Assembly (NCBI RefSeq): GCF_050320075.1
Contig: NZ_CP190019.1
Reading direction: 5' to 3' (one strand)
DNA length: 64,000 nt
From: Escherichia coli
GTDB lineage: Bacteria > Pseudomonadota > Gammaproteobacteria > Enterobacterales > Enterobacteriaceae
Shown piece after piece: positions 1 to 3,000 of the stretch (position 1 is the first letter of the stretch; the number at the start of each line of letters is the position of its first letter). The position numbers are program-made.

Positions 1-3000
1 GTTTCTATCAGCTGTCCCTCCTGTTCAGCTACTGACGGAGTGGTGCGTAACGGCAAAAGCACCGCCGGACATCAGCGCTATCTCTGCTCTCACTGCCGTA
101 AAACATGGCAACTGCAGTTCACTTACACCGCTTCTCAACCCGGTACGCACCAGAAAATCATTGATATGGCCATGAATGGCGTTGGATGCCGGGCAACCGC
201 CCGCATTATGGGCGTTGGCCTCAACACGATTTTCCGCCATTTAAAAAACTCAGGCCGCAGTCGGTAACCTCGCGCATACAGCCGGGCAGTGACGTCATCG
301 TCTGCGCGGAAATGGACGAACAGTGGGGATACGTCGGGGCTAAATCGCGCCAGCGCTGGCTGTTTTACGCGTATGACAGGCTCCGGAAGACGGTTGTTGC
401 GCACGTATTCGGTGAACGCACTATGGCGACGCTGGGGCGTCTTATGAGCCTGCTGTCACCCTTTGACGTGGTGATATGGATGACGGATGGCTGGCCGCTG
501 TATGAATCCCGCCTGAAGGGAAAGCTGCACGTAATCAGCAAGCGATATACGCAGCGAATTGAGCGGCATAACCTGAATCTGAGGCAGCACCTGGCACGGC
601 TGGGACGGAAGTCGCTGTCGTTTTCAAAATCGGTGGAGCTGCATGACAAAGTCATCGGGCATTATCTGAACATAAAACACTATCAATAAGTTGGAGTCAT
701 TACCAACCGGATGGAGACATTGCAGGATTAGGTTTGTGAGTGGATGCATAGTCATATATTGCACCTCCAGCCACACCCCCAGCAGCTGCTCCAATTCCTC
801 CTGCAACAAATTGTCCGGATAGTGTTCCTATAGCCATCGCAATATCACGCCCTGAAGCACCACCAGAAACAGAATCTAATTCATTTAGAGTCAGAGTTCT
901 CATATGATCTCCTTTTTATCTTATCGGATATTGAATAATAATTATCACCAACAAAGTAACATATTGCAGACATTAATATAGAGAAGCAAAATGTATGCAT
1001 GGATAAAAAGTCCTTTCCTCTAAAAACACAATCATATATAGCTAATGCAATATATATTGCGGTGGCATTTATTATAAATGCAAATAACAACTCTAATTTT
1101 GTTCTTTTTCTATCCATTACTTTTTATCCCATTACTTTCTATCCCATTACCATACAAACACTAACGATAATGATTATCGTTCACATAGTCAAGAGTGAAG
1201 GGGAGGGGGCCCTCACCCCCTATAAGGGGTCCGCTTGGAAAACGGATTTCCCCACGTCAAGAGAATTGAGTTGAACGAGTGGTTACATCCAAGCCAGCTA
1301 ACTCACTGAACGTAAAGTATGTACGAAATGCTCCTACCGTCCGATAACCATTTGGCTTACTTCCGTACATTCCCTTGCGTAGATGTTCAGAATTGTACGA
1401 TTTCGGACACCAAAACCGCTGTTGTCCCGCCATTCTGGCGATTCCTGAAAGTCATTTGACTAAAAAATAGTCTTAACGTGGTTTATTTTCCGAATTCCAA
1501 GCGGCCCGCCCTACATTTATACAATGTCCGGCAGGGCATAAAAGGGGCGAAAGAAAATACCTGGGCGAAGTCGCTGAACATCATTCTGGCGATTTCAATA
1601 AAGGTACTTGCTCACGCTCTGTCATTTTCTGAAACTCTTCATGCTGCATTTCGATTTTCCTTCTAAGATCATAACTCGCATACCTGTTCTTTTTATGTAT
1701 ATCTATATCTATTTTTGTGACGAGTTCAAACCACAATGTTCGCACTCCCCATGCAGCGTTATGAAACATTTCCGCAACGGCTATAGAGTCTGTATTAACT
1801 GCTTCAGTCATGTAGTCGCTAATACGTTCAGCGGTAATTTTCGTTATTTCATCGTAATTCATTTTATCTCCTACAAGATTATTTAATGGAATGCAAAATA
1901 TCTGGCCTGATAATAATGTTCCAGAATTAATATCTGCAGGCTATGTTAAGTTGTCCCCACACACAATCTACCTGTTTTCTCGTGTGTGCCACAGGAGCAA
2001 TACATAAATAGTCTGGCCATTAAGTTCGTAACCAGCTGCTGTAGATCTTAGTTTGTTTTCTTTGACATTAGGCTCGGCCCTTATAGCCTTTGGTCTTCCG
2101 GCCACAGTTGTTGGTTTTGTTGGCGTAGTTATTGCAGGTGCTATTGGTGCATTTATCGATGATAAATTTGTTGATGAGTTGAATCACAAGATCATAAAAT
2201 AATTAAAAGGAAGGCAGTGTTACTGCCTCCCTTTAAAATATTTAATGACAAGCAATGGCATCAGTAAAATCGCATATGTCATGGTTAAAACAGTAAAGTA
2301 AATGGAGCAGTATAAAATAAAAAGAGTGATGACATTATGAGATAATAATTTAAAAAAACCACCTGCTGTTGTTAGTTCCAGATTATAGAACAGTGTGATA
2401 TAAATCAGAATGGCATAAAAAACGGCCCCCCAGAAACAGGATTGCACAACAAGTTTTCTTGTTACTGGCTTTATGATTTCTCTTGTCTTATATGTGCAAA
2501 GAAAAACGAGAATACCCATAACTGGTGCTGTCTTGTTGTAGTTTGACATAAGTGCTGTCATGACGGGATCATGCAATGATGTAATAGAAGGGAGAAATGC
2601 AACCTTATTATATAAGTAGTACAGCACTTGAGAATATGGATTATTTATCCGAAGTATTAATATAGCCATTAATGGAATAATACCGATTATGGAAAATGCA
2701 TATAATATTTCGTTTGCTTTCTTGTTCTTATCTTTATTGCTGGTCATATATATACCTTTTTGTATTTTTATATATAGATTATATATCAGAGTTCTCAATA
2801 TATTTCCAGTATTTAATGGAGTGTACAGATATATATCTTATATATGGTAGTTCAGGTGCTTCCCTACCATTTTTAACGGCATATCCGGCAAACAATGTTA
2901 TGGGGAGCCTCTCTCATGGGGTTCGTTCGCCGGTGTAAGCGTTAGCCAGCCGCGAACTCTATTATCTTATTAACTTATAAGGAGTTATGTATGGAAACCT

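Follow-up and report, generated by a model that had tools for sequence, protein, structure and literature searches.

A decayed colicin V locus with a retained immunity gene in an IncF plasmid of Escherichia coli

Structure of the locus

In a 64,000-nucleotide stretch of Escherichia coli contig NZ_CP190019.1 (assembly GCF_050320075.1; hereafter the window), the toxin gene of colicin V (ColV, also microcin V, MccV), cvaC, is cut short next to an IS1 insertion sequence (IS), and the ColV immunity gene cvi and its promoter stand beside it in complete form. We are confident that we are dealing with a ColV/ColM hybrid IncF virulence-resistance plasmid whose colicin V locus has decayed: an IS1-associated deletion took the remainder of the system and spared cvi together with its promoter. 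The features concerned are the following (L002 being the intact ColV plasmid NZ_AP025658):

1-704, plus strand: IS1 (IS1B-type), nucleotides 65-768 of the 768-bp element, clipped by the window start
705-903, minus strand: cvaC remnant (cvaC'), 199 nt from the start of cvaC (codons 1-66), as aligned to the intact operon
700-903, minus strand: cvaC' open reading frame (ORF) as read, 67 amino acids, ending ...SPSG-W-stop
881-1117, minus strand: cvi, intact, 78 amino acids, I47 allele
1163-1184, minus strand: predicted Fur box (palindrome 1163-1181 plus consensus 19-mer 1166-1184)
1164-1192, minus strand: predicted sigma-70-like cvi promoter, TTGACT (1192-1187), 17-nt spacer, TATCGT (1169-1164)
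705-1282: ColV-operon homology block, 578 bp, 98.4% identical to L002 8621-9199

The IS1 copy retains the insA and insB' reading frames in the window and is assigned an IS1B transposase by the annotation of the same element in identical plasmids, one of which (L001) holds the complete copy at 11937-12704. Its terminal sequence (...GTTGGAGTCATTACC, also given as ...AAGTTGGAGTCATTACC) has its last base at window position 704, and the right inverted repeat abuts cvaC', contributing part of a tryptophan codon and a TAA stop; the 67th codon of cvaC' and the stop are in this way formed across the IS1 terminal repeat. The 9-bp flanks of the element differ (caaattgat versus aaccggatg), and comparison of both flanks revealed no target-site duplication (8-9 bp direct repeat). 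The other side of the element, as seen in the identical plasmids, borders on the region upstream of iroN. Both flanks map to L002 at 16590 and 9199, that is 7,390 bp apart, the corresponding distance in the closest ancestor-like plasmid (NZ_OZ038591) being 10,557 bp. The L002 segment replaced by IS1 comprises the cvaC 3' end, cvaB, cvaA and the genes for a DUF6404 protein and a DAHP synthase. The deletion begins at cvaC codon 67, takes in cvaB and cvaA, and stops ~180 bp upstream of iroN (7.4-10.6 kb in comparison to intact relatives). Since there is no target duplication and the flanks lie 7.4-10.6 kb apart in the intact relatives, we take IS1 to mark an IS1-associated deletion and not a simple insertion. 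The initial annotation, which described cvaC as truncated by IS1, is right in that the element abuts codon 66; a simple insertion is not what the flanks and the missing segment indicate.

The remnant itself is readily recognizable, its codons 1-66 being 100% identical to CvaC (tblastn E=4e-39) and its product matching the Pfam family MccV (PF17508; E=1.4e-24) over profile positions 1-68 of 104. The ORF translates as MRTLTLNELDSVSGG/ASGRDIAMAIGTLSGQFVAGGIGAAAGGVAGGAIYDYASTHKPNPAMSPSG-W-stop, in which MRTLTLNELDSVSGG is the 15-residue double-glycine leader (encoded at 859-903), after which 51 residues of mature ColV are kept. Because the CvaC match halts at residue 66 of 103 and the C-terminal part of the profile (positions 69-104) is missing, cvaC' is to be regarded as a pseudogene, not as a functional member of PF17508. 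NCBIfam gave no matches for any of the 6 small proteins.

The linked exporter that characterizes a functional ColV system, composed of cvaA (HlyD family) and cvaB (peptidase-ABC), is missing as well. With CvaA, CvaB and CvaC of the intact L002 operon as tblastn queries, neither cvaA nor cvaB nor a second cvaC was found in the 64-kb window (no exporter match better than E=0.03). The complete plasmid pEC21-2 (NZ_CP060900), colinear with window positions 2-45215 at 99.9%, carries one cvaC' and one cvi; a second, 17-residue CvaC match in it is the same stub in overlapping sequence segments. In the whole of pEC21-2 there was no cvaA, no second cvaC and no cvaC 3' end, and the CvaB query returned only the distant ABC proteins IroC and SitB (24-28% identity). 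Furthermore, each of the 8 listed plasmids with the 1-66 truncation has a single CvaC match. The initial annotation thus described the gene content well: the leader and about 50 core residues are there, cvaA and cvaB are absent from the window, and the possibilities it named for checking or as objections (exporter genes elsewhere on the plasmid, a second intact cvaC, an ORF belonging to a different microcin) find no counterpart in these plasmids or in the identity of the ORF.

Intact immunity gene and promoter

The cvi gene, reported as intact from the outset, overlaps the cvaC start by 23 nt at its 3' end and encodes a protein identical to WP_014640552.1, of which 78/78 residues align at 98.7% to the Cvi of the intact L002 operon (tblastn). 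A dinucleotide change (GC to AT) in codon 47 (window 977-979) gives the I47 allele, which tracks the ColM-hybrid lineage (265 plasmids at an identity of at least 99%) and also co-occurs with complete cvaABC. As the stretch 705-1282 is an exact match to two hybrid plasmids with full operons (L013 and L014), we consider A47I a lineage marker and not a sign of decay. On the same ground, the identity of 705-1282 to same-lineage plasmids with full cvaABC-cvi, cvi is probably functional, and its identity to the allele of complete systems suggests that Cvi would confer ColV immunity.

Upstream of cvi we observed a perfect 9-1-9 palindrome (AACGATAAT-N-ATTATCGTT, 1163-1181) and, partly coincident with it, a 19-mer (1166-1184) agreeing with the Fur consensus at 16/19 positions, a predicted site of a quality found twice in the 64-kb window against an expectation of 0.04. 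The palindrome covers the spacer and the -10 of the predicted promoter, which lies 47-52 bp upstream of the cvi ATG, and the Fur box is invariant between the window and the intact ColV plasmid. This position agrees with the published site, since a cvi promoter ~50 bp upstream of cvi at the Fur site is attributed to Boyer & Tai (1998) in the citing text of PMC6795089, and its Fur-dependent iron regulation is attributed to the same study in PMC6795089 and PMC7772137. The early description of an intact Fur-box promoter accordingly stands for the palindrome and the consensus match; its end at 1180 left the -35 hexamer (1192-1187) outside.

Two further observations concern this region. In a sizeable part of the lineage (e.g. 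L016, and many of the plasmids matching the chimeric query described below), an IS421 copy (IS4 family) occupies position ~1205/1206, which places it 13 bp upstream of the -35 of the cvi promoter, and the IS421-bearing relatives include plasmids with the full ColV operon. The second of the Fur-box-like sites (11425-11443, minus strand, 16/19 positions) is situated ~45 bp upstream of a DUF6404 gene (11034-11381, minus strand), a hint that this gene may be iron-regulated.

Ancestry and proposed history

For the ancestral form we searched PLSDB with a chimeric query (window sequence from the colicin B gene stub cba' to cvaC', joined to the remaining cvaC and 1.2 kb of cvaB), which was covered by 59 plasmids. 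The two of these that were inspected, L013 and L014, possess cba', the colicin B immunity gene cbi, the colicin M genes cma (toxin) and cmi (immunity), and in addition a complete cvi-cvaC-cvaB-cvaA system with the I47 form of Cvi. Window positions 705-1282 are an exact string match to both (0 changes in 578 bp), by which cvi and its promoter are the same as in the complete systems. As not one change separates this segment from its full-operon relatives, the loss of ColV toxin and export is recent. The exact IS1/cvaC' junction was found in 121 records (119 of 5,426 complete E. coli genomes), and the surrounding 4.5-kb block is present at a coverage of at least 80% in 272 PLSDB plasmids; its recurrence at 100% identity in many plasmids argues that the arrangement is not a chance one.

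On these grounds we propose the following history. The ancestor would have carried cba'-cbi-cma-cmi beside a complete cvi-cvaC / cvaB-cvaA system. IS1 would most likely first have inserted at the AT-rich hot spot upstream of iroN, and a one-ended IS1 deletion would then have proceeded into cvaC (the direction being our inference), removing codon 67 onward, cvaB, cvaA and several neighbouring genes. What survived would be a Fur-repressed promoter, an intact cvi and a cvaC stub of 66 codons. Under iron limitation the promoter would be derepressed and Cvi made, and the host may thereby be immune to the ColV of competitors; with the last 37 residues of the precursor gone and CvaAB missing, the host would be unable to make or export ColV itself.

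Three points weigh against this account. No precursor with IS1 and a target duplication was found at either deletion endpoint, for which reason the order of insertion and deletion is only inferred: the predicted junction of a simple IS1 insertion in cvaC gave 0 records, and the nearest sequence on the iroN side was a different IS1 (IS1A-type), 27 bp away, in pZJ3920-1. Moreover, the Cvi of the window has I47, as opposed to the A47 of classic ColV plasmids. Finally, the searches for a second cvaC and for cvaA and cvaB covered the window and plasmid sequences, and a second cvaC or an MchEF-type exporter may be present on the host chromosome.

The stretch upstream of iroN is of interest in its own right. 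Four independent breakpoints fall within ~180 bp of AT-rich sequence, three of them being IS1 ends (in both orientations, of IS1A and IS1B types) and one an IS-free deletion. This stretch, which lies outside the window (L001 11895-11936; NZ_OZ038591 ~29621-29803, 140-320 bp upstream of iroN), looks like an insertion hot spot for IS1.

Is cvi kept by selection?

Loss of toxin with retention of immunity extends beyond the plasmids that share the window's junction. Full-length cvi is present in 637 PLSDB plasmids versus 385 with full-length cvaC, and we distinguished 5 structurally distinct decay alleles, in all of which cvi is kept:

Window type: IS1 at cvaC codon 66/67
L011: inverted IS1 at codon 23
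L010 (pEC12-2): full cvaC, no IS, exporters deleted
L004: deletion from cvaC nt 53
L012: cvaC residues 1-26, on a different plasmid type

The three ColM-lineage alleles are independent, since they are not nested. The pEC12-2 form was tried as a precursor of the window form and rejected, each of the two keeping sequence that is missing from the other.

It may be that selection actively preserves cvi as an orphan immunity gene: the plasmid would have rid itself of the expense of making and exporting ColV while still protecting against competitors that produce it, and deletions would be tolerated only up to the cvi boundary. We hold this possible, rather than probable. In its favour are the decay alleles (at least 5 structurally different ones), the excess of full cvi over full cvaC, and the argument made elsewhere (PMC12546727) that conserved truncations beside orphan immunity genes indicate maintenance. 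An apparent cvi deficit within the lineage (291 parE'/cba'/cbi records against 233 with cvi joined), which we had considered as a loss of cvi in some members, was discarded because IS421 splits the match and cvi is present, and this too is in line with maintenance. Against it stands the absence of any substitution in 578 bp relative to full-operon relatives: neutral decay has had no time to set in, and selection has left no signal that could be measured. Furthermore, the variants were sampled through Cvi and CvaC matches, to which cvi-less alleles are invisible; a loss of cvi with cvaC and cvaAB intact would be self-lethal and alone yields the asymmetry; and the clustering of breakpoints on the iroN side is explained by the IS1 hot spot. 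Recency and geometry are sufficient to explain the retention of cvi; that it is of use as an orphan immunity gene is plausible. The pattern of toxin loss with immunity retention put forward in the initial annotation therefore holds as a description, and an adaptive reading of it gains no support from a 578-bp segment whose identity to full-operon relatives makes the loss a recent one.

A more far-reaching version, in which a Fur-regulated cvi is kept by selection (an 'immune non-producer') across a widespread lineage of extraintestinal and avian pathogenic E. coli (ExPEC/APEC), with repeated independent deletions of ~10.5 kb stopping at cvi and at the iroN promoter, we regard as somewhat more doubtful still. 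If true, nature would have run at this locus a replicated experiment that sets the loss of a toxin against the keeping of its immunity.

That IS1 might instead be a simple insertion in an otherwise complete ColV operon, the remainder of cvaC and cvaAB following just past the element, draws on the fact that the window begins inside IS1 and that the far side is not visible within it. We judge this very improbable, given that identical plasmids have the iroN upstream region, not cvaC, on the far side of the element, that the 9-bp duplication of a simple insertion is lacking, that the colinear pEC21-2 has neither cvaAB nor a cvaC 3' end, and that the predicted junction is found in no record. Even less credible is a functional 67-residue CvaC' product, be it a shortened microcin or an intracellular toxin checked by Cvi as an addiction pair: the ORF does retain a start, a leader and the intact Fur-regulated operon promoter, and the same truncation is conserved across many plasmids, but the product lacks the C-terminal 37 residues with the disulphide-bond region (PMC6795089), has no exporter in the window or pEC21-2 (ColV being reportedly bactericidal only after export, PMC6795089), and ends at a codon that is no conserved functional boundary, as other alleles are cut at codon 17-26 or keep the whole of cvaC; clonal descent explains the conservation of the junction.

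The colicin island and the remainder of the window

Past the ColV remnant, which we continue to read as the product of an IS1-associated deletion, the window holds a colicin B/M island, preceded by a fragment of F-plasmid backbone:

1283-2032: F-plasmid backbone fragment, 750 bp, separating the ColV remnant from the colicin B stub
1581-1862, minus strand: hypothetical ORF, 93 amino acids, inside the backbone fragment
1968-2032, minus strand: last 65 bp of a RelE/ParE toxin gene, inside the backbone fragment
2033-2202, plus strand: colicin B (cba) stub, last 170 nt of cba
2220-2747, minus strand: cbi, intact (Pfam Colicin_im E=2.4e-63, full-length profile)
2991-3806, plus strand: cma, intact (Pfam Colicin_M E=3.8e-155)
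3856-4209, minus strand: cmi, intact by the annotation in matching plasmids

Both the colicin B stub and the intact cbi mentioned in the initial annotation are thus in place. The plasmid thus encodes colicin M with its immunity, and would remain a bacteriocin producer, but has only immunity genes for colicins B and V. A cba remnant of 130 bp has reportedly been described, as compared with 170 bp in the window. Homology to classic ColV plasmids is limited to 705-1282; position 1282 was nevertheless rejected as the ColV/ColBM (colicin B and M) joint, because in L004, another ColV-type plasmid, the 1283-2032 segment directly adjoins cvi on its upstream side and leads into the RelE/ParE gene. The recombination joint lies at 2032/2033, where the 65-bp RelE/ParE gene end (parE', minus strand) meets the 170-nt cba end (cba', plus strand), and window position 2033 corresponds to position 6001 of the intact-cba plasmid L003 (cba at 4635-6170), the start of homology to it. 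Farther away, at 53618-55508, the 93-residue ORF segment of 1583-2032 recurs in diverged form (93%) behind the partition genes parM and parR, from which we conclude that the copy near cvi is a displaced piece of common F-plasmid backbone.

Beside cmi, positions 4387-10611 hold a site-specific integrase, two hypothetical genes and a 1,273-residue 'anti-phage transmembrane ATPase', the last of which is replaced by a TrlF-family ATPase in the sister plasmid L014; the segment looks like a swappable defence cassette adjoining the colicin island. Beyond the colicin M island, a module of DUF6404, hypothetical, 3'-5' exonuclease and yacB genes (10831-13530) is present at 98.7% identity. In ancestor-like plasmids the DUF6404-to-yacB module is located between cvaA and the DAHP synthase gene, and its position in the window would imply an extra rearrangement or a second copy in the ancestor.

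The region from ~15.7 to 45 kb is an IS26-bounded multiresistance region (oqxAB, a class 1 integron with dfrA12-aadA2, mph(A), aph(3')-Ia and aac(3)-IId), near the end of which Rfam identifies the IS10 antisense RNA RNA-OUT (44466-44535). A group II intron follows at 46890-49188 (domains D1-D4 and catalytic core by Rfam), an ltrA reverse transcriptase being annotated in matching plasmids. The last 19 kb (45-64 kb) match Klebsiella pneumoniae F-type plasmids at 99.6%, which suggests that an E. coli virulence plasmid and resistance-plasmid DNA of Klebsiella type have fused in this replicon.

Comparison with known systems

The arrangement has practical consequences, as PCR or gene-presence typing of cvaC/cvi would call such plasmids ColV-positive though they would be unable to make ColV; ~40% of PLSDB cvi plasmids are without a complete cvaC (637 versus 385). 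Moreover, the lineage may be used as material for testing selection on orphan bacteriocin immunity, the maintenance of which by selection is a question already raised in the literature. Orphan bacteriocin immunity genes have been reported on E. coli plasmids beside heavily truncated toxins, with the truncation shared by many plasmids (PMC12546727, Nat Commun 2025). Its authors argue that selection maintains them, whereas at the present locus the data do not allow selection and recency to be told apart.

The feature is already known and annotated in RefSeq. The same IS1/cvaC' junction is present in E. coli SMS-3-5 plasmid pSMS35_130 (NC_010488.1) and in 118 other complete genomes. In the RefSeq annotation of pSMS35_130, cvaC is listed as a pseudogene ('missing C-terminus'), colicin B bears the label 'missing N-terminus', and cvi is given as intact. 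This plasmid differs from the window in that the far side of IS1 is rearranged (IS3 and ompT, not iroN) and in that cbi is split by IS3. In comparison to complete ColV systems (e.g. NZ_AP025658 or the hybrid NZ_OZ038591, with cvi-cvaC convergent with cvaA-cvaB), the window has cvi with its promoter and Fur box, as well as the initial 199 nt of cvaC, at 98.4-100% identity, and is without cvaC codons 67-103, cvaB, cvaA and 4-7 kb of neighbouring genes.

A lineage with MccV sequence beside a truncated colicin B gene was, according to a paper citing it, described by Christenson & Gordon (2009), and the arrangement is interpreted there as recombination between ColBM and MccV plasmids. As far as that citing text describes it, this hybrid lineage likewise has a cba stub, an intact cbi and cma/cmi adjoining MccV-operon DNA, and the window, which has all of these, belongs to the ColBM(delta-cba)/MccV hybrid lineage. 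The closest published counterpart of the decayed form is the wastewater isolate 0143I (Cameron et al. 2019, PMC6723558), in which colicin M without colicin B is contiguous with a truncated cvaC, cvaA and cvaB are absent from the genome, cvi is not identical to the prototype and ColV was judged non-functional. Isolate 0143I was described at the level of gene content, whereas for the locus reported here the IS1 junction and the deletion were analysed as well.

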